Shown: positions 1,423 through 63,823 of the stretch, piece after piece
How positions within the stretch are numbered: the first letter of the stretch is position 1
How the letters are laid out: the number at the start of each line of letters is the position of its first letter
Origin: Nitrospiraceae bacterium UBA2600
GTDB lineage: Bacteria > Nitrospirota > Thermodesulfovibrionia > Thermodesulfovibrionales > Thermodesulfovibrionaceae
Direction of reading: 5' to 3'
DNA length: 64,000 nt
NCBI GenBank assembly: GCA_002339325.1
Contig: DDKK01000031.1
Location: 22,632-86,631, forward strand
Position numbers and translations under genes: made by a program
Notes under the pieces: model-generated
The model's input: the letters and a program-made list of their open reading frames with translations, nothing else
Databases searched by the model: none
Told to the model about the DNA's origin: nothing

Positions 1423-2076
1423 ATGCTGGAACTAATCAAATCCTATATTAGCGATTATGATGCCCTTAAGGAAATTGCTGAAAGATGCCTTACTACTGAA
1501 AGGTGGAATGGCAATGTTCCCCTGATCTTACTTGATGCAGCAATTACATCTGTTGGAGTGAATTATTTTCAAGTAGTTGTTCCAAAGGTAAGAGAGTTTG
1601 AAAAAGAGTTTATAAAAACCGGAAAAGTCAATTCTCTGTCAAACTTAGCCAATTTTAACTATGAAGAAGCCTTTCATATATGGAAAAACAGGCGTTCATG
1701 GCAGGTTGCGAAGGAAATTGCTAAGTATCTGTCAACTCTATCGAACAACGATAAAGAAGCCTTAAGAACGTGGGCTAAAAGCTCATCTCTTTCAAACTGG
1801 AAATCCGACCCTATTGGAAAAATAAAGGGAGTTGGGTTGATAACCTATCAATACTTAAGAATGATGGGAGGCATTGACACAGTCATGCCCGATAAAATTG
1901 TAAAGAGAGTCATAAACGAAATCCTCATAAAAGCAGGCGAAAAACCTTTATATGATGATATAGCGTTCATTCATAAAGTTGAAACCCTTGCTAAACAGAC
2001 AGGTTACCGTGAGGTAGAGCTATGCTTTATGACTTGGTTTAAAGATAATCCAGAAAGAATCTCAGAAATGCCTTAA
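1423..2076 (+). CDS. Hypothetical protein with HhH-GPD DNA glycosylase-like motif
   Basis: 217-aa ORF with GGAG SD; IKGVGLIT...VMPDKIVKRV resembles HhH + catalytic Asp. Confidence 0.55.
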   Translation: MLELIKSYISDYDALKEIAERCLTTERWNGNVPLILLDAAITSVGVNYFQVVVPKVREFEKEFIKTGKVNSLSNLANFNYEEAFHIWKNRRSWQVAKEIAKYLSTLSNNDKEALRTWAKSSSLSNWKSDPIGKIKGVGLITYQYLRMMGGIDTVMPDKIVKRVINEILIKAGEKPLYDDIAFIHKVETLAKQTGYREVELCFMTWFKDNPERISEMP

Positions 2077-10798: not shown

Positions 10799-11591
10799 AC
10801 CAAAAACAACAATAATAGTAAAGAAAATCAAAAAAGGTCATGGTGAACATCATGGCGGAAGCTGGAAAGTTGCCTATGCTGACTTTGTCACGGCAATGAT
10901 GGCTTTTTTCTTGCTTCTATGGCTTCTTTCGATGCTTGACCCTGTAAAAAGAGCAGCTGTTGCCGACTACTTCAGATATTTCAATCTATTTCAATCGGGA
11001 AAATCCTTTCTTGAGCAGTCAACGACAATTCAGATGGAAGTAAAATCATCTGTTCAGGATATTACACCTACGGAGACAGCTTCTGAAAAATTCAAAGAAC
11101 AAATGAAAAAAATCATTGAAGAAAAACTAAAAGAATTAAAGGATCACATTATGATAGACACAGTAGAAGGCGGAGTAAGAATTCAGATTATAGACTTAGA
11201 AGGTGAGTCCATGTTTCCATCTGGCTCTGCAGAACCAACTAAAAAAGCAAAGGAGATTTTAAAAGTCGTAGCGGAAAACATAAAGGAAGAAAACGCAAAA
11301 GTTGCTGTTGAAGGACACACTGACTCAGTGCCTTATAAAAGAGGTAAAATAACAAACTGGGAACTTTCAACCGATAGAGCCTCATCAGCTCGAAGAGAGC
11401 TTGAACAAAACGGTGTAGACCCTCGTAAAATCGCAAGAGTTGTAGGTTACGCCGATACCATGCCCCTTATTCAAGATAATCCTCGAGACCCAAGAAACAG
11501 AAGAATCAGCATAATATTAATGTTTGAAAAGGAACAGCAAGCATCAAAAGTCAATATAATGCAGCAAAATCAAACTCAGACAATTAAATAG
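10788..11591 (+). CDS. motB: Flagellar stator B subunit
   Basis: HHGGSWKVAYADFVTAMMAFF, EGHTD, NWELSTDRA, NRRISI. Confidence 0.92.
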   Translation: MADKPKTTIIVKKIKKGHGEHHGGSWKVAYADFVTAMMAFFLLLWLLSMLDPVKRAAVADYFRYFNLFQSGKSFLEQSTTIQMEVKSSVQDITPTETASEKFKEQMKKIIEEKLKELKDHIMIDTVEGGVRIQIIDLEGESMFPSGSAEPTKKAKEILKVVAENIKEENAKVAVEGHTDSVPYKRGKITNWELSTDRASSARRELEQNGVDPRKIARVVGYADTMPLIQDNPRDPRNRRISIILMFEKEQQASKVNIMQQNQTQTIK

Positions 11592-11594
11592 TTG

Positions 11595-12086
11595 TCAATC
11601 AAGTTCTTTCTTAATTTTTTCAGATTTTTCAAGCACTTTATTGTACATCTCTTTTCTTTTTTGTTTAACTTTTTCTTTTACATCGGGATATTTCAAAGAC
11701 AATATCTGGCAGGCAAGCCAGCCTGCATTTTCCGCTCCATTTATAGCAACTGTTGCAACAGGTATGCCAGGTGGCATCTGAACTGTTGAAAGTAAAGAAT
11801 CAAAGCCATTTAGAGCTCCGCTTGCTACAGGAACTCCAATAACAGGTAAAGTTGTATGGGCAGCTATAAATCCTGCAAGATGTGCTGCCATACCAGCAGC
11901 GGCTATTATTACCTCAATACCTCTTGCCTCAGCCTCTTCTGCATATTTTTTTGCTCTATCTGGTGTTCTATGGGCTGAGCATACATCAAGCTCAAAAGGA
12001 ATGCCCATCTCTTTTAAAACTTTTGCAGCTTTTTTCATTGTATCAAAGTCGCTGTCACTTCCCATTAAAATCAAAACTTTTGCCAT
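11595..12086 (-). CDS. purE: N5-CAIR mutase
   Basis: MGSDSD, SAHRTP, AGMAAHL, PVIGVP, QMPPGIPVATV. Confidence 0.97.
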   Translation of the reverse strand: MAKVLILMGSDSDFDTMKKAAKVLKEMGIPFELDVCSAHRTPDRAKKYAEEAEARGIEVIIAAAGMAAHLAGFIAAHTTLPVIGVPVASGALNGFDSLLSTVQMPPGIPVATVAINGAENAGWLACQILSLKYPDVKEKVKQKRKEMYNKVLEKSEKIKKELD

Positions 12087-12943
12087 TAGTATCTTCCTCC
12101 TCTTACCATTGATTCTAATCTTTCAATTCTTTCTTCAATAGGCGGATGGGTGCTTAAAAGTTTCATAATTGTCTTTCCTGAAAGAGGATTTACAATGAAC
12201 AAATGGGCTGTTCCTGGATTTGCATCCATTGGTATTGCCTGAGAGGCATAGTGTAGCTTTTTCAGCGCATTAGCAAGATAGAGAGGATTTCCAGCTATTT
12301 CAGCACCTTCTTCATCAGCCGCATACTCTCTTGATCTGCTTATGGCAAGTTGAATAATCATAGCAATTATTGGAGCAATTATCATCATAAGAAGGGCAAC
12401 TATTGGATGTCCACCTTCGTCATCGTCATGTCTTCCAAAGATGTTTGCCCACATTGCCATCTGAGCGAGATATGATACGGCACCTGCGATTGTTGCAGCA
12501 ATAGTGCTTATTAGTATATCTCTATGTTTGATATGAGCAAGTTCATGTCCTATTACTCCTTCAAGCTCTTCCCTTGAAAGAATCCTCATTATACCCGTTG
12601 TTACCGCTACTACGCCGTGTTTAGGAGACCTACCTGTAGCAAAAGCATTAGGCTGTTCCGAATCAATGATATATACTTTTGGCATAGGTAGACCGGCTTT
12701 ATGGGCAAGTCTTCTTACTATTCCATATAGCTCCGGAGCTTCAGATTCTGTAACTTCTCTTGCTCCATACATGGAGAGAACAATCTTATGGCTAAAGAAA
12801 TAAGCAAAAAAATTCATCGCCAAAGCCATAAAGAGTGCAATGGTAGCCCCTTGCTTGCCACCTACTACAGAACCCACAAAAATGAAAAATACAGAAAGAA
12901 AAACCATTAAAACTATTGTCTTCAATGTGTGCATTTTACACAC
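12086..12943 (-). CDS. htpX: Membrane zinc metalloprotease HtpX
   Basis: [28 protein letters not shown]. Confidence 0.95.
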
Positions 12944-13100
12944 CTCCTCTGCTCAGTTTTTATAAAAAATTCTTTAGAGGGTTAATAATATTAATTTACC
13001 ATTAAACGTGGAAATATATCAATTTTCAATAGCTCTTGAGAGATATAAAATTCAACGAAACCGAAGCTATCAAGTTGCAAGATATCGACTAAAAGTTTTA

Positions 13101-13121
13101 TTATTAACAATAATTTAATAA
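13101..13121. promoter_or_regulatory. Inverted repeat upstream of feoAB (possible metalloregulator operator)
   Basis: TTATTAA-N7-TTAATAA, 13 nt before the feoA start. Confidence 0.35.
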
Positions 13122-13134
13122 AATTGAGGATTAA

Positions 13135-13365
13135 ATGAAAACTCTAATTAATATAGAAAACGGTAAGAAAGTTAAGATATTAAAAATTTCTGGAGGAAAG
13201 GGAATTAGACAACATCTTCAATGTCTCGGCATCCATATTGGAGATGTGGTGACTCTAAAGAAAAGCTCTTTCTTGGGCGGTCCTGTTCTTCTGGAGATAA
13301 ATGGTTATGATATTGCATTAGGAAAGGGAATTGCCTCTAAAATAGAGGTTGAGGAAATAGAATGA
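13135..13365 (+). CDS. feoA: Ferrous iron transport protein A
   Basis: 76-aa ORF with LGIHIG, GGPVLLEING; upstream of feoB. Confidence 0.9.
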   Translation: MKTLINIENGKKVKILKISGGKGIRQHLQCLGIHIGDVVTLKKSSFLGGPVLLEINGYDIALGKGIASKIEVEEIE

Positions 13366-15275
13366 AGATTGCCTTTATAGGGCAGCCCAATGCTGGAAAA
13401 AGCACCATTTTTAATGGACTTGCAGGATACAAAACAGTAACAGCTAATTTCCCCGGACAAACTGTTCACTACACTGTAAGTAATGTAACAGTAGGCGAAG
13501 AGACCTTTGAAATTGTTGATCTACCCGGTATCTACTCTCTTACGGCAATAGATAAAGCAGAACTTGAATCAAGAAAATTCATCCTATCGGGCAAAGCAGA
13601 TGTAGTAATAAACGTTATTGATGCCTCCACTCTATCAAGAAGCTTAGAGTTAACGATTCAACTGGCAGAACTACAAGTTCCAATGGTTATCTGTCTAAAT
13701 ATGATTGATGAAGCCAAGAGAAAAGGCCTTGAGATAAATCTCAAAAAGCTCTCCGAAGTCTTTGACGTACCAGTTATTGAAACTATTGCTAATAAAGGAA
13801 TAGGTCTCAGTAAAATATTCACATCTGCAAAAGAGGCTTTTTATAAGAATAAAATTCCGAAAATTCAACATTTCCATAAAGACATAGAGGAAAAAATCGA
13901 AGAAATAGAAAAAATAATTCCCTCAAAGTTACTACCCAATATTCCAAGACGCTATATAGCGATAAAGTTGTTAGAAGGCGATGCCGAACTTTTTGAGGAC
14001 TTGAGAGATTACAAGGAGCTTATATTAAAAATTAATGAAATCCGGGACGAAATAAAAAGTTCTCACGGAAGACACGCTGATACAGTCATATCCTCTGAGA
14101 GACATGCTTTAACAATGAATATTTTTGAAGAGGTCACAAAGGTTGGTGAACCTATAAAATCGGCAAGAGAAAAATTAGATGACCTTCTTACAAACAGATT
14201 TCTCGGCTATCCCCTTCTCTTTTCTATTTTATTTGGAATATTTTTCCTGGTTTTTGAAGTGGGAAAACTTTTAGAAGAACCTCTCGTCCATATCTTTGAT
14301 TCACTAATCAAGAGATTACCCGAATATATTAGCGAAAATACTCTGACTTTCTATATTATTAAAGGCTTACTCGAAGGATTTGCTGGTGGACTTGGTGTTG
14401 CAATCCCTTATTTAATACCTTTTTTTATTGGTCTTACCATTCTTGAAGATGTTGGATATCTACCAAGAATGGCATTTTTAATGGATACTATAATGCACAG
14501 AATAGGGCTTCACGGAAAAAGTGTCCTTCCTTTCATAATATCTTATGGATGCAATGTTCCGGGAGTAATGGCTACGAGAATACTCGAATCTCCCAGGGAC
14601 AGATTTATAACAGCCGCTCTTTCTGTTTTTATCCCCTGTGCCGCAAGAACTACCGTTATATTTGGGCTTGTAGGAGCATTTATTGGCGGAATTGCTGCAG
14701 CAGGACTGTATATCCTCAATCTTTTAGTAATCATGACGATGGGAGCTATACTTACTCGCTTTATTCCAGAAATCACCCCTGGATTAATTATGGAAATTCC
14801 ACCTCTTCGAATTCCGACCCTAAAAAATGTTTTTATGAAAACATGGTTAAGATTAAAAGATTTTACAGTAGTTGCTTGGCCACTTCTTGTTTTAAGCAGT
14901 ATCATACTAAGTTTTCTTGAATTTCTAAATCTTGACAGTGTTCTAAATCAGATTTTTAAGCCATTAGTGAGCTGGATTTTAGGGCTTCCCGAACAAACGG
15001 GTATAACTCTCATTTTTGGAATATTAAGAAAAGAACTTTCAATGATAATGCTATTTCAAGCGCTGGATACGACTAATATAGGTCAACTAATGACAAAGAC
15101 TCAGATAATTGTTTTCACTATTTTTACGATATTTTATCTGCCCTGCATAGGAACTCTGGGCGTTCTAATAAGGGAAATAGGTATTAAAAAGGCCATGCTC
15201 GTTACCATTCTAACAATAACAGTTGCTGTATTTCTCTCTGTCCTTTCAAGGTTAATATTAGAGACAGTTTTTTGA
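13362..15275 (+). CDS. feoB: Ferrous iron transport protein B
   Basis: GQPNAGKS, NFPGQTV, DLPGIYS, LNMID, GYLPRMAF, GCNVPG. Confidence 0.96.
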   Translation: MKIAFIGQPNAGKSTIFNGLAGYKTVTANFPGQTVHYTVSNVTVGEETFEIVDLPGIYSLTAIDKAELESRKFILSGKADVVINVIDASTLSRSLELTIQLAELQVPMVICLNMIDEAKRKGLEINLKKLSEVFDVPVIETIANKGIGLSKIFTSAKEAFYKNKIPKIQHFHKDIEEKIEEIEKIIPSKLLPNIPRRYIAIKLLEGDAELFEDLRDYKELILKINEIRDEIKSSHGRHADTVISSERHALTMNIFEEVTKVGEPIKSAREKLDDLLTNRFLGYPLLFSILFGIFFLVFEVGKLLEEPLVHIFDSLIKRLPEYISENTLTFYIIKGLLEGFAGGLGVAIPYLIPFFIGLTILEDVGYLPRMAFLMDTIMHRIGLHGKSVLPFIISYGCNVPGVMATRILESPRDRFITAALSVFIPCAARTTVIFGLVGAFIGGIAAAGLYILNLLVIMTMGAILTRFIPEITPGLIMEIPPLRIPTLKNVFMKTWLRLKDFTVVAWPLLVLSSIILSFLEFLNLDSVLNQIFKPLVSWILGLPEQTGITLIFGILRKELSMIMLFQALDTTNIGQLMTKTQIIVFTIFTIFYLPCIGTLGVLIREIGIKKAMLVTILTITVAVFLSVLSRLILETVF

Positions 15276-49939: not shown

Positions 49940-50134
49940 TTATTCCTTTTCCTCTTCCAGAAGAATCTTGTGATTAAGTAATGACATCTCTTTTATTTTT
50001 CCCCTGAAGACCTTCTGTTCTCCAAAGATGTTGCGAAGATATATGTTTTTTCCCTCGGGTCTTAGAATGTCTACAGCTTCAAGATAAATCTCCTCTTCTC
50101 CATTTTTAATTACATATGCATTTGCCTCACACAT
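49940..50134 (-). CDS. CooT-family nickel-binding protein
   Basis: MCEANAY start, NIFGEQK, NHKILL; 64 aa. Confidence 0.85.
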   Translation of the reverse strand: MCEANAYVIKNGEEEIYLEAVDILRPEGKNIYLRNIFGEQKVFRGKIKEMSLLNHKILLEEEKE

Positions 50135-50543
50135 TGAACTCCTCCTTTATATGAAGGATAAGTTTTTCCACAAGATGTGGAAGTGGTTCTTTTAAAAAGC
50201 CTACTATATCAATTCCTTCCTGATTTATTGGAAGAAGTATTTTTTTAGCCTCAGAACTTCCAATAGCCTCTGCCATTGCTGCTGTTAGTTCTCCCATCAT
50301 AGCATTTGCAACTATAATGCTGAGAGGACCAAGTATTAGATCAACTCTCTTAACATTCCATATAATCGCATTTTCGCCCGATGCGCCCTTATTTGCCTTA
50401 GCCTTCATCATGTTTGCTGTGGCTGCTGCATTTGTTCCAAGGGCGACAATCTCTATCTTATCGCCAAAGGTCTCCCTCAAAGATTTGATTATAAAACTTC
50501 CTATTCCTCCACCTTGACCATCAATTACTGCAACTTTTAGCAT
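50127..50543 (-). CDS. DUF3842-family protein
   Basis: VIDGQGGGIG, ALGTNAAAT, GASGENA, NAMMGELT. Confidence 0.85.
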   Translation of the reverse strand: MLKVAVIDGQGGGIGSFIIKSLRETFGDKIEIVALGTNAAATANMMKAKANKGASGENAIIWNVKRVDLILGPLSIIVANAMMGELTAAMAEAIGSSEAKKILLPINQEGIDIVGFLKEPLPHLVEKLILHIKEEFNV

Positions 50544-54087: not shown

Positions 54088-54137
54088 TTGACAAAATGAA
54101 AAATTTATGCTATCTTCTATTAACATTAAAAGTTAAT
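54088..54137 (+). promoter_or_regulatory. Sigma70 promoter of the hydrogenase operon plus palindromic operator-like site
   Basis: TTGACA-N17-TATCTT with TGn; ATTAAC-N7-GTTAAT at 54119-54137. Confidence 0.65.
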
Positions 54138-54273: not shown

Positions 54274-55098
54274 ATGGAGCAGGGCTTCAAGCCTAAGGTT
54301 ATTGCCTTTTTATGTCATTGGTGTAGCTATGCAGGAGCGGATATGGCAGGTTCTTTAAGGTATAGTTATCCACCCTATTTGTATCCTGTTAGAGTTCCCT
54401 GTTCAGGACGAGTTGAGCCAGAGTTTGTAATTAAAGCCTTTCTGTCAGGTGCAGATGGTGTATTAGTTGCAGGATGTCATCCCGGAGACTGTCATTACAA
54501 AACAGGAAACTATTATGCAAACCGAAGATTTAATCTTCTCACAAGATTTCTTGAAGTAATTGGAATTCCAAAACAAAGAGTAAGGCTTGAATGGATTTCT
54601 GGTTCAGAAGGGTTTAAGTTTTCTCAGGTAGCAAAGGAATTTGTTGAAAAGATTCAAAGCCTCGGTCCTCTATCTCTCAAAACTCCCGTTGATATTGACT
54701 GGCAGACTCTTTCGCGTACTGTGGCAACCGTTGGCTCCGCAGGAAAACTATTCTGGGAGGAAGACAAATGCATGGCTGAGATGATTGACTTTTTCCTGAG
54801 CTACGCCCAAGAAAACTCCTGTGCAGAGTGCATTCCTTGCAGAATAGGCACGAAGAGAATGCAAGAGATGGTAAAAAAGATTTTTGACGGTTCCGTATCT
54901 ACACGAGAACTCTCTCTTTTAGAAGACTTTGCAGATGATATTGGAGCATCAAGCAAATGTGACCTTGGATTAATGGCAGGAAAAGCAGTCAAATTTGCTC
55001 TTCAACACTGCAAAAGCGATATAGAGGCTCACTTGAAAGGAAGCTGTGGTCATAGTATTCCAGCCAATCCAGGCTGGCAGACAGTAATGCTTAAATAA
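54274..55098 (+). CDS. MvhD/FlpD [2Fe-2S] domain fused to NuoF/HydB C-terminal [4Fe-4S] domain
   Basis: AFLCHWCSYAGAD, RVPCSGR, GCHPGDCHY, WISGSEG (MvhD); EDKCM, ENSCAECIPCRIGT, SKCDLG (NADH_4Fe-4S type). Confidence 0.9.
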   Translation: MEQGFKPKVIAFLCHWCSYAGADMAGSLRYSYPPYLYPVRVPCSGRVEPEFVIKAFLSGADGVLVAGCHPGDCHYKTGNYYANRRFNLLTRFLEVIGIPKQRVRLEWISGSEGFKFSQVAKEFVEKIQSLGPLSLKTPVDIDWQTLSRTVATVGSAGKLFWEEDKCMAEMIDFFLSYAQENSCAECIPCRIGTKRMQEMVKKIFDGSVSTRELSLLEDFADDIGASSKCDLGLMAGKAVKFALQHCKSDIEAHLKGSCGHSIPANPGWQTVMLK

Positions 55099-55116
55099 TT
55101 TCTGAGGAGGATAAAT

Positions 55117-56889
55117 ATGGCTAACGTAACAATCACAATTGATGGACAAAAGGTCACTGTGCCAGAGGGAACTACTATACTTAAAGCATCTGAACAGGTA
55201 GGCGTGAAAATTCCAACTCTCTGTTTTCTTGACCATGTCGGATTAAGGCATATCAAACACGATGTAGGAGCTTGCAGGATCTGTGTAGTAGAAGTAGAGG
55301 GAATGAGAGATTTTGTTTCATCCTGTAATACACCTGTTCAAGAAGGCATGGTCATAAGAACCAATACTCCTAAGATTTTAGCTGCCCGAAAGCTAAATCT
55401 TGAAATGATGCTGAGTGAACATCATCTTGACTGTCCTACCTGTCCAAAAAACGGTGCCTGCGAACTTCAGGCAGTTTGTGCAGAGCTTAATGTAAGGCAG
55501 ATAAGACCGCAGGGTGAGAAAAAAGATTTACCAATTGATGACTCCTCTCCATCAATAGTTAGAAATCCTAACAAGTGTATCATATGTCAGCGATGTATAA
55601 CTGCTTGCAAGGTTCTTCAGTCCGTTGACGTTCTTGAACTTTACGGAAATGGCTATGATGCGGTGGTGCGTCCTCTCGGTGGAAAGCCAATTATTGAAAC
55701 TCAATGTGTTGCCTGCGGACAGTGTGCCCTTGTTTGTCCCACTGCTGCTATTGTTGAAAGAGATGATACATGGAAAGTCTGGGAAGCAATTGCTGACCCG
55801 AAGAAACATGTAGTTGTCCAAACCGCACCGGCAACCCACGTAACAATAGGTGAAGCCTTTGGCTTACCTGTTGGAACTGATATTACAGGTAAAATGGTCA
55901 GTGCACTCAAAAGAATTGGATTTGATGCAGTCTTTGATACAAACTGGTCTGCAGACCTCACCATAATGGAAGAGGGATACGAGCTTATCCACAGAATTAA
56001 AAACGGAGGAGTGCTGCCTCAGTTTACATCATGTTCTCCTGGATGGATTAAGTTTCTTGAGGAGTTTTACCCTGACCTGATTCCTCATATTTCAAGTTGT
56101 AAGTCTCCTCAACAAATGCTCGGTCCAATAGCAAAAACCTATTATGCCCAGAAAAAAGGCATTTCTCCTGAAGATATCTTTGTTGTCTCAATAATGCCAT
56201 GCACAGCAAAAAAATATGAAGCAGCCAGACCTGAGATGAACGCAGCGGCAAAATTCTGGAAAAATCCCAATATCTCAAGGGATGTAGATGTAGTTCTTAC
56301 ATCAAGAGAACTAATAAGAATGATACGTGAAGCAGGGATTGATTTTGCCAAACTGCCAGACTCAGCCTATGACCCTGTTATGGGAGAAGGAACAGGTGCA
56401 GCCCAGATATTTGGAGCAACAGGTGGAGTTATGGAAGCCGCCTTAAGGACAGCCTATGAGGTGGTGACAGGCAAAACCCTTCAGAAGCTTGACTTTGAAG
56501 ATGTAAGAGGAATGAAAGATATTAAAGAAGCTTCGGTAAGCATGAATGGATTAACAGTGAAAGTTCTCGTTGCTCACTCCCTTGGTGCAGCAAGGCAACT
56601 TATGGAGAAAGTAAGAGCAGGTGAGCTCAAGGATTATCATTTTATTGAAGTTATGACCTGTCCTGGGGGATGTATTGGTGGAGGTGGACAGCCTATTCCA
56701 ACAACTGTTGAAAAGAGGGAGATGCGAATTGCTGGAATTTATGAAAGAGACAAAAAGATGCCTCTAAGAAAAAGTCATGAAAATCCTGAAATTCAGGCAA
56801 TTTACAAAGAATTCCTTAAGGAACCTCTCGGTCATCTATCTCATGAGTTACTTCACACTCATTACACACCGAGAGGAAAAAATAACTAA
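55117..56889 (+). CDS. hydA: [FeFe]-hydrogenase catalytic subunit, NuoG-like N-terminus, no signal peptide
   Basis: GACRICVVE..SC [2Fe-2S], HHLDCPTC..C, two CxxCxxC, H-cluster TSCSPGW, MPCTAKKYE, EVMTCPGGCIGGGGQP; fused small-subunit tail. Confidence 0.97.
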   Translation: MANVTITIDGQKVTVPEGTTILKASEQVGVKIPTLCFLDHVGLRHIKHDVGACRICVVEVEGMRDFVSSCNTPVQEGMVIRTNTPKILAARKLNLEMMLSEHHLDCPTCPKNGACELQAVCAELNVRQIRPQGEKKDLPIDDSSPSIVRNPNKCIICQRCITACKVLQSVDVLELYGNGYDAVVRPLGGKPIIETQCVACGQCALVCPTAAIVERDDTWKVWEAIADPKKHVVVQTAPATHVTIGEAFGLPVGTDITGKMVSALKRIGFDAVFDTNWSADLTIMEEGYELIHRIKNGGVLPQFTSCSPGWIKFLEEFYPDLIPHISSCKSPQQMLGPIAKTYYAQKKGISPEDIFVVSIMPCTAKKYEAARPEMNAAAKFWKNPNISRDVDVVLTSRELIRMIREAGIDFAKLPDSAYDPVMGEGTGAAQIFGATGGVMEAALRTAYEVVTGKTLQKLDFEDVRGMKDIKEASVSMNGLTVKVLVAHSLGAARQLMEKVRAGELKDYHFIEVMTCPGGCIGGGGQPIPTTVEKREMRIAGIYERDKKMPLRKSHENPEIQAIYKEFLKEPLGHLSHELLHTHYTPRGKNN

Positions 56890-56904: not shown

Positions 56905-58302
56905 ATGGTAAGAAAAGTAAACACATTCAAGGGTAACGGTACAGTGAAGTCACAGACAGGAACTTACAGAGCAGGAGAGATAAGAGGAATAATCAAAATC
57001 AACGAGGGTAACTGTGTTGGCTGTCATACCTGTAGCAGTGTTTGTCCTGCAGGAGCAGTAAAAGGCTCCTTTGGAGACAAACACAGCATTGACCTTGACA
57101 GATGTATCAACTGTGGGCAGTGCCTACTTAACTGTCCCTTTGGTGCAGTTGAACAGATGAGCTTTGTTGATGTGGTAATGGAGAAACTCAAAGACAAAAA
57201 AACAAAAGTTGTTGCAATTATTGCTCCAGCTGTGAGAGTTGCCATTGGAGAAGAGTTTGGTGCTGAGCCAGGCACACTTACAGTTGGAAGACTCTGGGCT
57301 GCTTTAGAAAAAGCAGGTTTTCTAATTTATGACAACAATTTTGCAGCAGATCAAACAATTCTTGAAGAAGGCACAGAGTTACTTGCAAAAGTAGCAGCCC
57401 ATGCAGGGCTTAAACAGTTACCTGTTGAGCTCTGGGGGAAAAAAATAACTCTTGATATCAAAGAGTTCTCTCATCATCCCCTACCCCAGTTTACTTCCTG
57501 CTGTCCCGCGTGGGTGAGATATGTAGAGGTTTTCTATCCAAAACTTATTCCCTACCTTTCTTCAGCCAAATCACCCCAGCAGATGGCAGGAGCAACAGCA
57601 AAGACCTACGGTGCAAAGCTTTGGGGAGCAAAGCCTGAAAATATTTTCACCGTTGGAGTAATGCCTTGTACAGCAAAAATCTTTGAAGCCTCCCGTCCAG
57701 AATTTGATTCTGCGGCAAAATATTTAAAAAAGTCAGGTATGAAAGATGTCGATGCAGTTCTAACAACAAGAGACCTTGCAGAACTTCTAAAGCGTATGAA
57801 CATAGACCCAATGAAAATGTCTGAGGATGCAAGCAGAAAACCTGAGATGTTTAAATTTTACTCAGGTGGTGCTACCATATTTGGCACAAGCGGTGGAGTT
57901 ATGGAGGCAGCTGTAAGATTTGCATTCCATATGCTTTCTGGCCAGTCTCCTCAGGCAATGAGTCCTAAGTGGGATTTTGAAGGAGTGCGAGGATTTACAA
58001 AACCTGTTGCATCAGCAACAATTTCCGTTCCTCTAAAAGAAGAATATCAGAAAGCTCTCAAAACAAAAGAACTTCAGGTTAAGGTCTGTGTAGTAAATGG
58101 TATAGGAACAGATGGGGCACATCTTAAGCCAATATTGGAAGATGTCTTGGCAGGTAAAAGCCCCTATCACTTCATAGAGGTTATGAACTGTCCTGGTGGC
58201 TGTATTAACGGAGGTGGACAGCCAGTTCATCCAATTGAACTTTCTCTCTTAGACCAGCTTTTTTATTCTCTTGTAAAAAGCTTTGAAGGAGGTAAACTAT
58301 GA
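56905..58302 (+). CDS. hydA: Second [FeFe]-hydrogenase large subunit (Desulfovibrio-type, 2x[4Fe-4S])
   Basis: CVGCHTCSSVCP, CINCGQCLLNCP, TSCCPAW, MPCTAKIFE, EVMNCPGGCINGGGQP. Confidence 0.96.
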   Translation: MVRKVNTFKGNGTVKSQTGTYRAGEIRGIIKINEGNCVGCHTCSSVCPAGAVKGSFGDKHSIDLDRCINCGQCLLNCPFGAVEQMSFVDVVMEKLKDKKTKVVAIIAPAVRVAIGEEFGAEPGTLTVGRLWAALEKAGFLIYDNNFAADQTILEEGTELLAKVAAHAGLKQLPVELWGKKITLDIKEFSHHPLPQFTSCCPAWVRYVEVFYPKLIPYLSSAKSPQQMAGATAKTYGAKLWGAKPENIFTVGVMPCTAKIFEASRPEFDSAAKYLKKSGMKDVDAVLTTRDLAELLKRMNIDPMKMSEDASRKPEMFKFYSGGATIFGTSGGVMEAAVRFAFHMLSGQSPQAMSPKWDFEGVRGFTKPVASATISVPLKEEYQKALKTKELQVKVCVVNGIGTDGAHLKPILEDVLAGKSPYHFIEVMNCPGGCINGGGQPVHPIELSLLDQLFYSLVKSFEGGKL

Positions 58303-58625
58303 AAATCAGAAAGCTTACAAGAAGGTCTTTTCTAAAATTAGCAGGTGCTGGAATTATCAGCCTTTCCTTTACAAAGCCATCTTTTGCCGGTGATACAGCG
58401 GAGAAAAACTTTTTTGAGACAAAGGTCGGAAAAGAAAGACTTAAACTCATAAAGGCAAGACAGTCCGGGCAGTATAAGGATGATGTTATATCAAGAGAAA
58501 AATTCAAAATGGCCGCATCCCATGAAAACCCGATGATAAAAAGGTTTTACTCTGAGTTTGCTCATCATCCTTTAAGTGAAGTAAGTGAAGCATTGTTGCA
58601 TACGCATTACAAGGCAAGGGTATAG
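58299..58625 (+). CDS. hydB: [FeFe]-hydrogenase small subunit with Tat signal
   Basis: LTRRSFLK twin-arginine motif; SHENPMIKRFY..HPL...LLHTHY. Confidence 0.9.
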   Translation: MKIRKLTRRSFLKLAGAGIISLSFTKPSFAGDTAEKNFFETKVGKERLKLIKARQSGQYKDDVISREKFKMAASHENPMIKRFYSEFAHHPLSEVSEALLHTHYKARV

Positions 58626-59025: not shown

Positions 59026-59286
59026 ATGAATAGAAAGATTGGAATTGTTGGAATAATCGTAGCTGAAAGAAATAAAAATGCTCCTTTAGTAAACCAAATC
59101 CTCTCTGAGCATGCAGAGATAATTCTTGCCAGAATGGGAATACCTCAAAAGGAGACAGACACTGGCTTTATCTCACTTTTTGTAGAAGGAAACACAGACC
59201 GAATAGGCTCTCTTACAGGAAAGCTTGGAATGATAAAAGGTGTAACTGTAAAAAGCCTTCTTATCTCTGAAAAGGAGAAGAAATGA
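59026..59286 (+). CDS. TM1266-family putative iron-only hydrogenase system regulator
   Basis: IGIVGIIV, VNQILSEHAEIILARMGIP, LTGKLGMIKGVTVK; context. Confidence 0.85.
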   Translation: MNRKIGIVGIIVAERNKNAPLVNQILSEHAEIILARMGIPQKETDTGFISLFVEGNTDRIGSLTGKLGMIKGVTVKSLLISEKEKK

Positions 59287-60701
59287 TACGCATAGAGAGG
59301 GACTCTCTTGGTGAGCTTTCTATTCCGAAGGATGCTTACTACGGCATTCATGCATTAAGAGCAAAGGAAAACTTTTCTGTAACGGGACAACCACCTCACA
59401 GGGAGCTCATATGGGCTATGGCTATTGTTAAGAAAGCATGTGCATGGGTTAACAGAGAGATTGGAATGCTTGAGGATAACAAGGCAGACTCAATTCTTAA
59501 AGCCTGCGATGAGCTGGCAGTAGGTAACTTAGATGGACAGATTATCGTTGATGCTCTTTCAGGTGGAGCAGGCACAACAATTAATATGAATATTAACGAG
59601 GTTATTGCCAACAGAGCCCTTGAGCTTATGGGATTTGAAAAGGGTAGCTACGATGTAATTCATCCTCTCTTTCACATAAATCTAAATCAGTCAACGAACG
59701 ATGTTTTCCCCACAGCTGTTAAAACTGCCATTGTAAGGCTTCTGAGAGAGCTCGTAGATGAGGTTGCTTTACTTCAGGGTGAGTTTCAAAAGAAAGAAAA
59801 GGAGTATGCAAAAATTCTTAAGGTAGGAAGAACTGAACTTCAGGATGCTGTTCCAGTTACAGTTGGGCAGGAGTTTTCTGCCTGGGCAGAGGCTTTAAAC
59901 AGAGACTGGTGGAGGCTGAATAAGGCAGTAGAAAGGGTTCGTCAGGTCAATCTCGGTGGAACTGCTGTAGGCACAGGACTTAACTGTCCCAAGATTTTCA
60001 TTGATATGGCAATAGAGAAACTTCGGGAATTTACAGGGCTTCCTCTTGCAAAGGCGGAGAATCTCTTTGAGGCAACTCAGAATACAGATACATTTTCAGA
60101 GGCATCGGGATATCTTAAAACTTTAGCTTCAGACCTTATAAAAATTGCTTCAGATTTAAGGTTCTTAAGCTCTGGGCCAAAAGCAGGAATAGGTGAGTTA
60201 AGGCTTCCTGCTGTTCAGGTTGGCTCATCAATAATGCCTGGAAAGGTAAATCCCGTTATTCCTGAGATGGTTACACAGGTTGGAATAAAAGTGATTGCAT
60301 CAGACCATGCAGTAAGCTTTGCCTGTAGCATGGGGAATCTTGAGCTTAACCCGTTTTTACCACTTGTAGCACACGAACTTATTGGTTCTTTAAAGATGCT
60401 TAAGAGCTGTTCAACACTTTTTAGGGAGAGATGTATCTCAGGAATAACCGTTGATGAAGCAAGATGTAGAGAGCTTTTTGATAAGAGTTCCTGTATCATA
60501 ACTGCCTTTTCTCCCTATCTTGGCTATGAAACCTGTGCAGAGATATACAAAGAGGCAGTAAGCAAAGGCAGAAAAGTTGAAGAAATCCTGATTGAGAGAG
60601 GATTTTTCACAAAGGAAGAGATTGAGAGCATAACTCAACCACAGGAATTAACAACTCCCGGCTTTGCCGGAATTAAACATTTAAGGAGGCTTTTAAAATG
60701 A
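59283..60701 (+). CDS. aspA: Aspartate ammonia-lyase
   Basis: RIERDSLGE, GGAGTT.NMN.NEV, NQSTNDVFPT, GRTELQDA, GSSIMPGKVNPV. Confidence 0.92.
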   Translation: MIRIERDSLGELSIPKDAYYGIHALRAKENFSVTGQPPHRELIWAMAIVKKACAWVNREIGMLEDNKADSILKACDELAVGNLDGQIIVDALSGGAGTTINMNINEVIANRALELMGFEKGSYDVIHPLFHINLNQSTNDVFPTAVKTAIVRLLRELVDEVALLQGEFQKKEKEYAKILKVGRTELQDAVPVTVGQEFSAWAEALNRDWWRLNKAVERVRQVNLGGTAVGTGLNCPKIFIDMAIEKLREFTGLPLAKAENLFEATQNTDTFSEASGYLKTLASDLIKIASDLRFLSSGPKAGIGELRLPAVQVGSSIMPGKVNPVIPEMVTQVGIKVIASDHAVSFACSMGNLELNPFLPLVAHELIGSLKMLKSCSTLFRERCISGITVDEARCRELFDKSSCIITAFSPYLGYETCAEIYKEAVSKGRKVEEILIERGFFTKEEIESITQPQELTTPGFAGIKHLRRLLK

Positions 60702-62203
60702 AAGCTGTTTTAGCAAAAGAGGAAAAAAACTGGATAAACAGCGTGATTAAGGAAGAAGAGATAGAGAAATATATGGAAGACGGAAGGGACTTCATAAATG
60801 ATGAGGAAATCTGGGAGAAACTAAAGCAAAATCAGAATCCAGAACCATCCCGAATATGGGATATACTTCAGAAATCCCTTTCAATTGAAACACTTCTTCC
60901 CGATGAGACAGCAGCTTTGCTTAATCTTAAAGACCCGGAACTCTGGCAAGAGGTTTTTGATGTAGCAGCAAAGGTAAAGAAAAAGGTTTATGACAACAGA
61001 ATTGTCACATTCGCACCTCTTTACTGCGGAAATCTATGTGTGAATAACTGCGTTTACTGTGGTTTCAGAAGAGACAATCATGTGATTAAAAGAAAGGTGC
61101 TAACTCTTGAAGAAGTAAAAAGAGAGGCAGAGGTGCTTGCTGGTGAGATAGGACATAAAAGACTTATTGTTGTTTACGGTGAGCATCCTGCAACTGGAGC
61201 TCATTACATAAGAGACACGATAGAAACTATTTACTCTGTCAAGGTAATGACAAAGAACGGATACGGTCAGATAAGAAGGGTTAATGTGAATGCCGCACCA
61301 ATGAGCATAGATGAGTTAAAGATGCTTAAGGAAGTTGGAATCGGCACATATCAGGTTTTTCAGGAGACTTATCATCATGACACATACGCAAAGCTTCATC
61401 CTAAGGGAACAATTAAACATCACTATCAGTGGAGGCTTTACTGTCATCACAGAGCACTTGAAGCGGGAGTTGATGATGTGGCATTGGGAGTGCTTTTTGG
61501 ACTTTATGACTGGAGATTTGAGGTTATGGGGTTACTTTATCATGCAAGGGAGCTTGAGAAACGGTTCGGAATTGGTCCACATACAATTTCTTTCCCACGG
61601 CTTGAGCCTGCAGCAAACACTCCCTTTGTGCAGGAGACAAGATATAAAGTTTCCGATGAGGATTTCAAAAAAATCATTGCAGTGATAAGACTTTCTGTTC
61701 CCTACACTGGTATGATTCTTACTGCCCGAGAGCCTGCTCACATAAGAAGAGAAATCATTGCTTCAGGAATGATAACCCAGACAGATGCATCCACAAAAAT
61801 AGGAATAGGAGCATACTCTGACAGATACACAGAACAGGAGCTTGAGCGACAGCAGTTTGAGATTGGAGACTCCCGTAGCCTTGACGAAGTAATCAGAGAA
61901 CTTGCAGAGATGGGCTTTATTACAAGCTTTTGCACAGCCGGTTATAGATGTGGAAGAACAGGAGATAGAATAATGAGTTTGCTTAAATCAGGAAAGGAGG
62001 CGATATTTTGTAAACTCAATGCAGTGCTTACTTTCAGAGAATGGCTTGATGACTTTGCCTCGGAACAGACAAAGGAAGCAGGAGAGAAAGTTATTCAGAA
62101 GGAGCTTGACGAGTTAAAGGCAAAAGTGCCTCATAAAGTTTACAACAAGCTCATTGAATACTACGGGAGGATTAAAAATGGAGAAAGAGACATATATTTC
62201 TAA
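60698..62203 (+). CDS. hydG: [FeFe]-hydrogenase maturase HydG
   Basis: FAPLYCGNLCVNNCVYCGF, FQETYH, GPHTISFPR, SFCTAGYRCGRTG. Confidence 0.96.
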   Translation: MKAVLAKEEKNWINSVIKEEEIEKYMEDGRDFINDEEIWEKLKQNQNPEPSRIWDILQKSLSIETLLPDETAALLNLKDPELWQEVFDVAAKVKKKVYDNRIVTFAPLYCGNLCVNNCVYCGFRRDNHVIKRKVLTLEEVKREAEVLAGEIGHKRLIVVYGEHPATGAHYIRDTIETIYSVKVMTKNGYGQIRRVNVNAAPMSIDELKMLKEVGIGTYQVFQETYHHDTYAKLHPKGTIKHHYQWRLYCHHRALEAGVDDVALGVLFGLYDWRFEVMGLLYHARELEKRFGIGPHTISFPRLEPAANTPFVQETRYKVSDEDFKKIIAVIRLSVPYTGMILTAREPAHIRREIIASGMITQTDASTKIGIGAYSDRYTEQELERQQFEIGDSRSLDEVIRELAEMGFITSFCTAGYRCGRTGDRIMSLLKSGKEAIFCKLNAVLTFREWLDDFASEQTKEAGEKVIQKELDELKAKVPHKVYNKLIEYYGRIKNGERDIYF

Positions 62204-62555
62204 GGAGACTCTTCATTCTGAGCCATCCCCTTTCTGTCACTCTGAGCCTTCCTTCAGTCATTCTGAACCATCCATTTGTCATTCTGAGCCGAAGGCTAAG
62301 AATCTCCTTCTTGAATTAAACAAAATAGCAGAGTTTGTCAAAGAAAAATACAATACCCACATTTGGTTTGTAGAGATAATGGGAAAGAGACACTCATACA
62401 TAGCCGGACACAAAGAAGACTCATTTCTTCCACCAGAGTTAATTTATATCAATGACAGATACGCTGCTGTCTCCAATGAATGGGAGAGAATCACCGAGAA
62501 AGATGAAATCATATCAACCATAAAAATGCTGCTTTCAAAGGAGACAATCCCATGA
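62178..62555 (+). CDS. Hypothetical 125-aa protein with N-terminal (C)HSEP repeat array
   Basis: GGAGG SD at 62166, ATG 62178; overlaps hydG end and hydF start (ATGA). Confidence 0.7.
   Translation: MEKETYISKETLHSEPSPFCHSEPSFSHSEPSICHSEPKAKNLLLELNKIAEFVKEKYNTHIWFVEIMGKRHSYIAGHKEDSFLPPELIYINDRYAAVSNEWERITEKDEIISTIKMLLSKETIP
62211..62309 (+). repeat. Tandem array of TGTCATTCTGAGCC units ending in one complete element
   Basis: Units at 62211, 62235, 62256, 62277 (periods 24/21/21); the last continues GAAGGCTAAGAATCTCCTT. Confidence 0.9.
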
Positions 62556-63823
62556 GTGTGCCAAAAAGTCAGAGACTTCATATAGCTCTCTTTGGAAGGA
62601 CAAATGCAGGAAAATCATCCCTTATAAACGCTCTCACTGGTCAGTCTCTCGCGATTGTATCTGATGTTCCCGGAACAACTACAGACCCTGTAGTAAAAGC
62701 CATGGAGATTCTTCCTCTTGGACCGGTTGTTCTTATTGATACAGCAGGAATTGATGATGTGGGAAAACTTGGTGAATTAAGAAAAAAGAAATCCTATGAG
62801 GTTTTTGATAAGACAGACCTTGTTTTACTTGTAATTGACCCTGAAAAAGGGGTTGGAGAGTTTGAAAGGGAGATAGTGAAAAAAGCAGAAGAAACAGGGA
62901 CTCCCTTGATTTATGTTGTAAATAAAATAGATATCCATCCAGAAGCTAAGAAGTATGAGTTGCCTGAACCTAAGGTTTTAGTAAGTGCTCTGACAGCTGA
63001 AGGCATAGATGAGCTTAAACAGGCTATAGTAAACAATGCTCCAAAGGACTGGACCCTTCCTACCGTCTTGGGAGACTTGATAAATCCCGGAGATGTAGTA
63101 ATATGCGTAATTCCCGTTGACAAGGCTGCACCCAAGGGAAGACTTATACTGCCCCAGCAGATTGTAATAAGAGACATTATTGACAATGAGGCAATCGCCA
63201 TAGTTGTAAAAGAAAGAGAGCTTATTCATGCCCTAAGTTTACTCAATAAAAGACCTTCACTTGTAGTTACTGATGCCTCTGTTTACAATAAAGTTGCAGC
63301 AGATACACCCGCAGACATAAGGCTTACATCATTTTCAATTCTTTTTGCCCGTTACAAAGGAGATTTGCAGACACTTGTTGAGGGTGTTCTAACTGTAAAA
63401 AAACTAAAGCCAGGAGATAAAGTGCTCATAGCAGAGGCATGCACCCATCATCCTGTGGAGGATGACATTGGAAGAGTAAAAATTCCCCGTTGGCTAAGGG
63501 CACAGGTTGGAGGTGAGCTTGAGATTGAGGTAAAAGCTGGTGGTGGTCCACTTCCTGATAATCTCACTGAATACAGTCTCATTGTTCATTGTGGTGCCTG
63601 CATGCTCAATCGAAAGGAGATGCTTAGTAGAATTCTACAGGCTAAGCGGGCTGGTGTTCCTATTGTCAATTATGGTGTGATAATGGCTCACATTCACGGA
63701 GTTCTTCATAGGGCACTTTCTCCTTTTCCACACCTTCAGGGAATGATAGATGAAGCAGAAAAGGAGGTAAAAGCAGAGATAGAAATTTTAAAGAAAATAA
63801 CAGAAAGAGCAATTTATGAATAG
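62552..63823 (+). CDS. hydF: [FeFe]-hydrogenase maturation GTPase HydF
   Basis: GRTNAGKSS, DTAG, NKID, LILPQ, EACTHH, HCGACM. Confidence 0.96.
   Translation: MSVPKSQRLHIALFGRTNAGKSSLINALTGQSLAIVSDVPGTTTDPVVKAMEILPLGPVVLIDTAGIDDVGKLGELRKKKSYEVFDKTDLVLLVIDPEKGVGEFEREIVKKAEETGTPLIYVVNKIDIHPEAKKYELPEPKVLVSALTAEGIDELKQAIVNNAPKDWTLPTVLGDLINPGDVVICVIPVDKAAPKGRLILPQQIVIRDIIDNEAIAIVVKERELIHALSLLNKRPSLVVTDASVYNKVAADTPADIRLTSFSILFARYKGDLQTLVEGVLTVKKLKPGDKVLIAEACTHHPVEDDIGRVKIPRWLRAQVGGELEIEVKAGGGPLPDNLTEYSLIVHCGACMLNRKEMLSRILQAKRAGVPIVNYGVIMAHIHGVLHRALSPFPHLQGMIDEAEKEVKAEIEILKKITERAIYE

Follow-up and report, generated by a model that had tools for sequence, protein, structure and literature searches.

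The 64-kb stretch of contig DDKK01000031.1 analyzed here (64,000 nt, called the window throughout) belongs to Nitrospiraceae bacterium UBA2600, of the Thermodesulfovibrionales. It carries an operon whose first gene encodes a fusion protein of 274 residues, a full MvhD/FlpD domain joined to the C-terminal [4Fe-4S] domain of a HydB/NuoF-type subunit (Table 1). A strong AGGAGG ribosome-binding site lies 8 nt 5′ of its ATG, and the leader of the operon gives no match in Rfam, riboswitches included. The gene for an M3-type [FeFe] hydrogenase, HydA, starts 18 bp 3′ of the fusion gene and in the same reading frame; 15 bp farther on are the genes for the large and small subunits of a second [FeFe] hydrogenase, of the periplasmic Desulfovibrio type, which overlap each other by 4 bp. 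This second pair directly continues the operon and was absent from an earlier account of the region, made from the letters alone and referred to here as the sequence-only reading. Among these hydrogenase subunits, a twin-arginine (Tat) signal is confined to the 108-residue small subunit, and no signal peptide was noted in the N-termini of the fusion protein or the M3 HydA, which were read by eye with no predictor.

The sequence-only reading had proposed that the first gene encodes a complete MvhD/FlpD domain followed by nothing of NuoF except the C-terminal [4Fe-4S] domain, and Pfam, NCBIfam, and Foldseek agree on exactly this. The full-length FlpD model (PF02662, positions 1-123 of 123) covers residues 9-131 with an E value of 1.1e-51, NADH_4Fe-4S (PF10589) covers residues 170-253 (E 7.3e-21), and beyond these two Pfam detects no domain in the protein. 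The NuoF models of NCBIfam match it over their last ~120 positions and nowhere else, and the best NCBIfam match aligns residues 6-133 with the MvhD part of HdrA2 (8e-47). By Pfam and NCBIfam, the fusion protein has neither the Complex1_51K domain, which binds flavin mononucleotide (FMN), nor an NAD(H) site; thus, the flavin site on which HydABC depends is absent. The AlphaFold2 model is confident (mean predicted local distance difference test [pLDDT] 87.7) and compact (predicted template-modeling score [pTM] 0.85). In Foldseek, its N-terminal domain superimposes on MvhD of the Mvh-Hdr, Elp-Hdr, and Fdh-Hdr complexes (5odc_D, 8rvu_F, and 7bkb_F among the matches) with template-modeling scores of 0.85-0.93, root-mean-square deviations (rmsd) of 1.8-1.9 Å, and 49-55% identity; the C-terminal domain superimposes on the helical [4Fe-4S] domain of HydB, NfnB, and NuoF, with an rmsd of ~2 Å across ~98 residues.

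An alignment of 26 family members, 43-85% identical to the window protein, sharpens the assignment of both halves. Its profile finds the MvhD chains of solved Hdr complexes with E values of 1e-60 to 1e-64, and its C-terminal half is closer to HydB-type subunits (E ~1e-31) than to the NuoF of complex I (E ~1e-17); the domain is thus HydB-derived. It corresponds to residues ~413-537 of a 599-residue HydB (7q4v_B) and so is without the FMN/NAD part of such a subunit and without both of its flanking iron-sulfur domains. Nine cysteines are invariant in all 26 members: Cys14, 17, 43, 68, and 73 in the MvhD part, the putative [2Fe-2S] ligands, and Cys183, 186, 189, and 229, which make up an N3-type CxxCxxC...C motif. 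A decaying remnant of HydB was considered as well and is ruled out by these invariant cysteines together with the conservation of the family in every host lineage found.

The HydA encoded next retains the NuoG-like N-terminus that had been claimed for it. By Pfam, Fer2_4 and NuoG 4Fe-4S domains, holding a [2Fe-2S] and a [4Fe-4S] cluster, are followed by two ferredoxin-type [4Fe-4S] clusters, the H-domain, and a small-subunit domain. Its nearest solved relatives are the HydA1 subunits of the Thermoanaerobacter kivui (8a6t_A, E 8.2e-196) and Acetobacterium woodii (7q4v_A, E 1.5e-194) HydABC complexes; it is ~60% identical to Moorella HydA proteins, and it scores 865.7 bits against the NCBIfam model NF040763 ("NADH-dependent [FeFe] hydrogenase, group A6"), for which the cut-off is 765. 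All three H-cluster signature motifs are present. The first of them, L1, reads TSCSPGW rather than the textbook TSCCPxW (window 56026-56046, residues 304-310). Of the 120 closest HydA proteins, 113 have this same heptapeptide, as does A. woodii HydA1 (7q4v_A); the variant is thus characteristic of the clade and no sign of a defect, and the notion that it renders the enzyme inactive can be discarded.

Complete NuoE-NuoF fusion proteins used as queries matched the C-terminal [4Fe-4S] region only, in the 64-kb window and in ten other loci carrying the fusion; therefore, as the sequence-only reading had it for this operon, neither an FMN/NAD domain nor a NuoE is encoded in cis, and this holds across all of these loci. 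Nor does the window contain an MvhA or MvhG homologue. To set the gene neighborhood of the fusion against that of ordinary MvhD, use was made of 79 stand-alone mvhD loci that were a by-product of a contig scan with generic MvhD motifs, among the matches listed; 75 of them have an HdrA-like open reading frame (ORF), usually immediately upstream. Not one of 11 fusion loci has hdrA within 10 kb. From this difference it follows that the fusion has exchanged hdrA, the usual neighbor of MvhD, for hydA. A separate observation concerns ordinary mvhD genes themselves: at two loci an in-frame TGA falls exactly at the invariant cysteine of GCHPGDCH (position 10196 of L018, Desulforudis sp. Tu-874; position 10202 of L012, a Desulfovirgula metagenome-assembled genome [MAG]; L numbers denote comparison loci), which probably marks a selenocysteine-containing MvhD in sulfate reducers of the Firmicutes.

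The architecture is not peculiar to this genome. The searches for FlpD plus NADH_4Fe-4S and for linkage to hydA that had been suggested along with the earlier reading recovered ~30 clusters at 90% identity, and in all 10 distinct contexts examined an M3 hydA lies downstream of the fusion gene. The two are directly adjacent in 8 contexts (by inspection in L005; in the remaining seven, with measured gaps of 4-146 bp), and in the other two, L087 and L092, a stand-alone NuoF-C gene separates them. The contig scan mentioned above, made with the family alignment, gave, among the matches listed, one further fusion locus, L006. Pairwise identities of the fusion proteins and of the HydA proteins co-vary over the loci (r 0.72, 36 pairs). 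Named hosts are Thermodesulfovibrio hydrogeniphilus, Thermodesulfobacterium commune, T. thermophilum, Desulfonauticus, Thermodesulfitimonas autotrophica, Ammonifex thiophilus, Desulforudis, and a Peptococcaceae MAG, every one of them a thermophilic reducer of sulfate, sulfite, or thiosulfate. The window itself comes from a Thermodesulfovibrio: the Thermodesulfovibrio yellowstonii HydA belongs to a 90%-identity cluster whose representative shows 98% identity to the window HydA. The HydA of Thermodesulfobium narugense DSM 14796, from a different phylum, shares a 90%-identity cluster with Thermodesulfovibrio HydA proteins. The latter similarity suggests that T. narugense may carry the fusion module too. 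Within Thermodesulfovibrio, only some species are reported to have the Fe-only hydrogenase cluster (PMC5165239), and this patchy presence, with the HydA cluster shared across phyla, points to recent lateral transfer of the hydrogenase island.

That the fusion might be an assembly chimera, the outcome which would have undone the sequence-only reading, is ruled out: three independent groundwater or subsurface metagenome runs contain all sampled words of the region, the ~30 clusters repeat the architecture, and RNA contigs cross the junction. Metatranscriptome contigs span the linker between the two domains (54574-54807, zero mismatch) and the junction of the fusion gene with hydA (55022-55510), so that the pair is expressed, with the qualification that DNA carry-over is possible in such libraries. 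A different circumstance applies to the type strain of Thermodesulfobacterium commune, DSM 2178 (L001, CP008796.1), where the M3 hydA at 10853-13960 is interrupted by an IS256-type transposase gene (11120-12325, minus strand); hydA is intact in T. thermophilum DSM 1276 (L006). The T. commune type strain may thus be without this enzyme, a natural knock-out.

A search with the C-terminal domain alone returned mostly full HydB/NuoEF proteins and fragments, and no natural fusion of HydA to NuoF-C. It is in the neighborhood of the M3 hydA genes that stand-alone proteins consisting of the NuoF/HydB C-terminal [4Fe-4S] domain only, 117-182 residues long and with the four cysteines kept, are encountered, their genes being flanked by the fusion gene and an M3 hydA or by two copies of M3 hydA. 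Such proteins suggest that flavin-free partners of HydA form a wider class.

Table 1. Features of the operon and its surroundings in the window, and stand-alone NuoF-C genes in related loci.
Feature	Position	Strand	Evidence
Promoter-like site before operon, TTGACA-17-TATCTT with TG	54088..54116	+	Consensus scan; weak, site count not above shuffles
Fusion gene, 274 aa, MvhD/FlpD + HydB/NuoF C-terminal [4Fe-4S] domain	54274..55098	+	ORF, Pfam, NCBIfam, profile, AlphaFold2
MvhD/FlpD domain, residues 9-131, putative [2Fe-2S] site	54298..54666	+	Pfam E 1.1e-51
HydB/NuoF C-terminal helical domain, residues ~139-262, N3-type [4Fe-4S] motif	54688..55059	+	Profile match
M3-type [FeFe] hydrogenase HydA, 590 aa, cytoplasmic	55117..56889	+	Pfam, NCBIfam, H-cluster motifs
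Large subunit of second, Desulfovibrio-type periplasmic [FeFe] hydrogenase, 465 aa	56905..58302	+	Pfam; 1hfe_L E 2.5e-103
Small subunit of periplasmic hydrogenase, 108 aa, twin-arginine (Tat) signal	58299..58625	+	Fe_hyd_SSU, TAT_signal
TM1266-family putative iron-only hydrogenase system regulator	59026..59286	+	TIGR03959 E 1.3e-30
Aspartase/fumarase-like lyase	59283..60701	+	Lyase_1, FumaraseC_C
HydG-like radical-SAM maturase	60698..62203	+	Radical_SAM, BATS
HydF maturation GTPase	62552..63823	+	HydF_dimer, HydF_tetramer, MMR_HSR1
Stand-alone NuoF-C protein, L087	10834-11382		
Stand-alone NuoF-C protein, L089	12704-13057		
Stand-alone NuoF-C protein, L092	2855-3211		

Downstream of the 4 hydrogenase genes lies a set of regulatory and maturation genes (Table 1), within which the aspartase/fumarase-like lyase is no oddity of this genome, as it stands beside hydrogenase maturation genes also in L001, L004, L087, L088, L089, and L092. 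Between hydG and hydF a small ORF that matches no Pfam family is kept (window 62178-62555; L001 18742-19002; L004 2677-3054; L087 1696-2097; L088 17452-17739). It is recognizable by the motif G-[KR]-R-x-S-Y-x-[AT]-G-x2-E-[DE]-x-[FY]-L-P, and in the window copy an insertion close to the N-terminus consists of a fourfold HSEPS-like repeat. A DUF3842 gene is found within a few kb of the fusion-hydA pair in Thermodesulfovibrio and Firmicutes hosts (window 50127-50543, minus strand, Pfam E 1.4e-55; L004 6500-6982; L005 9436-9942; L089 15159-15635), and its product may be a candidate hydrogenase accessory factor. Far upstream, at window 2073-4565 on the minus strand, an 830-residue ORF resembles the carbamoyltransferase HypF, as judged by eye from its translation; if so, the organism matures [NiFe] hydrogenases as well.

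Comparison with the solved complexes shows what is old and what is new in this arrangement. With the MvhAGD-HdrABC complex of methanogens, which uses a [NiFe] hydrogenase (5ODC), and with the Fdh-MvhD-Hdr (7BKB) and Elp-Hdr (8RVU) complexes, the fusion shares a bona fide MvhD, and in all of them, as in the fusion module, the donor carries its own MvhD adaptor; in Elp-Hdr, an alternative donor module brings its own MvhD-like subunit to Hdr. The catalytic partner differs, being [FeFe] HydA instead of [NiFe] MvhAG, Fdh, or Elp, and MvhD, rather than contacting MvhG, is covalently joined to a HydB-derived [4Fe-4S] domain. Moreover, unlike in MvhAGD-HdrABC, the fusion gene is never beside hdrA, and a fusion-HydA-Hdr complex is hypothetical. 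The electron-bifurcating HydABC enzymes of group A3 (Thermotoga maritima 7P5H, A. woodii 7Q4V, T. kivui 8A6T) offer the close HydA homologue and the HydB counterpart of the C-terminal domain, whereas the fusion protein has no FMN/NAD domain, no N-terminal [2Fe-2S] domain, and no C-terminal ferredoxin domain of HydB, and is accompanied by no HydC. In the HdrA-like flavoproteins QmoB and HdrA2, MvhD is likewise a fused domain; there it sits on the acceptor flavoprotein, and here on the donor side. (For sulfate reducers, it has been proposed that a hydrogenase may be the third partner of Qmo [Ramos et al. 2012, PMC3333476].) Finally, the window HydA passes the cut-off of the model that describes non-bifurcating, NADH-dependent HydAB(C) enzymes of the kind found in Syntrophus and Syntrophomonas (cf. 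NF040763), but its partner has no NADH/FMN site, and the NCBI name that goes with that model is therefore probably wrong for this subclade. The fusion-HydA pair is not HydB, since there is no FMN/NAD domain, not HydABC, since there is no HydB or HydC, and not Mvh, since it is of the [FeFe] type; it brings known modules together in a new way. NuoF/NuoG-type and MvhD/HdrA-type modules are mixed in nature in other ways, too: the clusters at L019 4703-12891 and in L014, L072, L080, and L081 contain an N-terminal part resembling HdrA, a complete NuoEF-like protein, and mvhDGA, and also encode a protein with a NuoG-type Fer2_4 N-terminus and HdrA-like parts.

The interpretation that we prefer, with belief and doubt about evenly divided, is that the fusion protein and HydA form a flavin-free, NAD-independent, cytoplasmic [FeFe] hydrogenase module that feeds electrons to an HdrA-type flavoprotein. 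The HydB-derived [4Fe-4S] domain would bind the NuoG-like N-terminal domain of HydA, and the [2Fe-2S] cluster of the fused MvhD would extend the wire and dock on the HdrA of an Hdr-type complex encoded elsewhere. Electrons would pass from the H-cluster through the ferredoxin-type clusters of HydA and those of its NuoG-like N-terminus to the N3-like [4Fe-4S] cluster of the fusion protein, and from there through the MvhD [2Fe-2S] cluster to the external partner. In Thermodesulfovibrio the candidate partner would be the reported hdrACB-mvhDGA system, and electrons from H2 would be bifurcated at the flavin of HdrA, one branch going to ferredoxin and the other to a disulfide-type acceptor, for example DsrC. 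That the two docking events take place, which way the reaction runs, and which acceptors are used is what we infer from the comparisons. For the first docking event the analogy is with the contacts of HydB with HydA in HydABC and of NuoF with NuoG in complex I, and since the C-terminal domain is HydB-derived and the nearest solved relatives of this HydA are the HydA1 subunits of HydABC complexes, docking of the one on the NuoG-like N-terminus of the other is a reasonable inference.

Several indirect lines favor an HdrA-type flavoprotein at the other end. Solved MvhD homologues returned with entry titles are all in Mvh-Hdr, Elp-Hdr, or Fdh-Hdr(-Fmd) complexes, and Elp-Hdr supplies the precedent for an added donor module. 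The presence of hdrA at 75 of the 79 ordinary mvhD loci points the same way. The fused MvhD domain retains 46 of the 51 positions that are at least 90% conserved in 74 HdrA-linked MvhDs (those most similar to the query, many of them without MvhG), and it is 56% identical to standard MvhDs, which are 61% identical among themselves. On this comparison, the fused domain shows no relaxation relative to Hdr-linked MvhDs, and this too favors an HdrA-type partner. So does the physiology of the hosts, most of which grow on H2 and need reduced ferredoxin. Lastly, candidate partners are on record. An hdrACB-mvhDGA operon has been described in Thermodesulfovibrio sp. N1, and methyl-viologen-reducing hydrogenase was scored as present in all five Thermodesulfovibrio genomes compared, T. 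yellowstonii included (PMC5165239). In Thermodesulfitimonas autotrophica (L090 5631-7886) there is an orphan hdrA of 649 codons with no hdrBC or mvhD nearby, directly followed by the sulfur-carrier gene tusA, and its product is a candidate partner for the fusion there. An HdrA search from a Thermodesulfovibrionales MAG gave Thermodesulfitimonas, and no named Thermodesulfovibrio, among its best 120 matches.

The same findings require one revision. The sequence-only reading expected the partner to be an HdrA without its own MvhD, and while the orphan hdrA-tusA of Thermodesulfitimonas is of this kind, the Hdr operon reported for Thermodesulfovibrio has an mvhD of its own. This points away from an adaptor-less HdrA and to competition or alternation of donor modules, that is, to an [FeFe], nickel-free alternative to MvhAGD serving the same Hdr. 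By likeness to Elp, such an alternative may be tied to nickel limitation.

Four considerations weigh against coupling to Hdr. The first is genomic: hdrA is within 10 kb of the fusion gene in none of the 11 loci, and there is none in the window, which covers 54 kb upstream but ~7 kb past hydA. Second, given the MvhD of the reported Hdr operon, the fusion protein would have to compete with it. Third, the extra stand-alone NuoF-C proteins in some loci (L087, L089, L092) are left unexplained by an Hdr model. Fourth, the conserved neighbors, an extracytoplasmic [FeFe] hydrogenase and maturases, are compatible with other roles.

The best of the alternatives, and still a rather unlikely one in our judgment, takes the absence of linked hdrA at face value: the fusion protein and HydA would be a self-contained heterodimer in which the two added iron-sulfur clusters wire the enzyme to a non-Hdr partner, with no bifurcation. 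That partner might be ferredoxin, flavodoxin, another flavoprotein, or one of the cytochrome b or Fer4_11 proteins whose genes are found close to some of the loci; L004 has a cytochrome b gene immediately 5′ of the fusion gene, and in L001 both Fer4_11 and cytochrome b genes are nearby. The stand-alone NuoF-C proteins adjoining M3 hydA genes fit this alternative well, as they imply that an N3 module can serve HydA without MvhD. What it fails to explain is the MvhD domain itself, which is no generic ferredoxin, whose title-bearing solved homologues are all in Hdr complexes, and which is as unrelaxed as the Hdr-linked MvhDs. Besides, M3 HydA enzymes such as CpI take ferredoxin without extra subunits.

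A second alternative, which we regard as improbable, runs the enzyme in reverse. Fusion-HydA would be a cytoplasmic H2-evolving valve, possibly confurcating with Hdr, and the periplasmic HydAB would re-oxidize the H2, in a form of hydrogen cycling. The tight packing of the 4 genes in the window is as expected for such a division of labor, and L004, L006, L086, L088, L091, and L092 have an extracytoplasmic [FeFe] hydrogenase next to the pair or not far from it. However, co-location of the two enzymes could merely reflect their shared HydEFG maturases, and in L091 they are 6 kb apart. Moreover, many of the hosts are obligate or facultative H2-oxidizing lithotrophs, for which uptake is the more sensible direction.

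Still another possibility, one to which we give very little credence, is that the enzyme is NAD(P)H-linked after all, as its NCBI name implies, and is completed in trans by a NuoEF- or HydBC-type flavoprotein. The NF040763 score and the ~60% identity to Moorella HydA proteins speak for it. But neither in the window nor in the other loci is there an FMN/NAD or NuoE domain to complete it, and a complete HydB, having an N3 domain of its own, would compete for the very site that the C-terminal domain of the fusion presumably occupies. Nuo-like complexes of Thermodesulfovibrio are, in addition, reported to be without an NADH dehydrogenase module (PMC5165239).

The least credible view is the published one: in the literature found to mention these genes, they are assigned to a periplasmic enzyme, THEYE_A1725-A1728 being taken as a four-subunit periplasmic Fe-only hydrogenase (PMC5165239), and the tight packing of the four genes and the Tat signal on the small subunit agree with it. 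Yet the 465- and 108-residue subunits by themselves make up a complete heterodimer of the DdH type, inspection by eye showed no signal peptide on the fusion protein or the M3 HydA, and fusion-hydA stands apart from hydAB elsewhere: in L091 the distance is 6 kb, and L087 and L089 have another kind of hydrogenase in the vicinity. To our knowledge, MvhD and HydB domains are also cytoplasmic in all known systems.

The literature searched contains no description of the fusion, in line with the earlier statement that no characterized example was known, and an earlier passing mention is possible. We know of no characterized multimeric group A [FeFe] hydrogenase that does without a NuoF-type flavoprotein, and of no characterized Hdr-coupled hydrogenase that is not of the [NiFe] type. 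In its fullest form, which we advance tentatively and with somewhat more reserve than belief, the proposal is that this is the first [FeFe] counterpart of Mvh-Hdr: a nickel-free module with a fused MvhD that competes with MvhAGD for HdrABC, or docks on an orphan HdrA or Qmo, and allows H2-driven, NAD-independent bifurcation to ferredoxin and a DsrC-type acceptor in thermophilic hydrogenotrophic sulfate reducers, having spread laterally among at least three, and probably four, phyla. There is a practical consequence for annotation. One published method calls a group A hydrogenase near a "NuoF" match "bifurcating A3" (PMC11201294), and pipelines relying on such proximity, like the NCBI A6 name, probably mislabel the clade linked to the fusion. 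For the biology of these organisms, a HydA partner that has lost the flavin/NAD site and gained an Hdr adaptor would bridge the two principal families of enzymes that bifurcate electrons from H2. It would offer sulfate reducers a possible means of reducing ferredoxin, and perhaps DsrC or Qmo, with H2, and may be a way to dispense with nickel.

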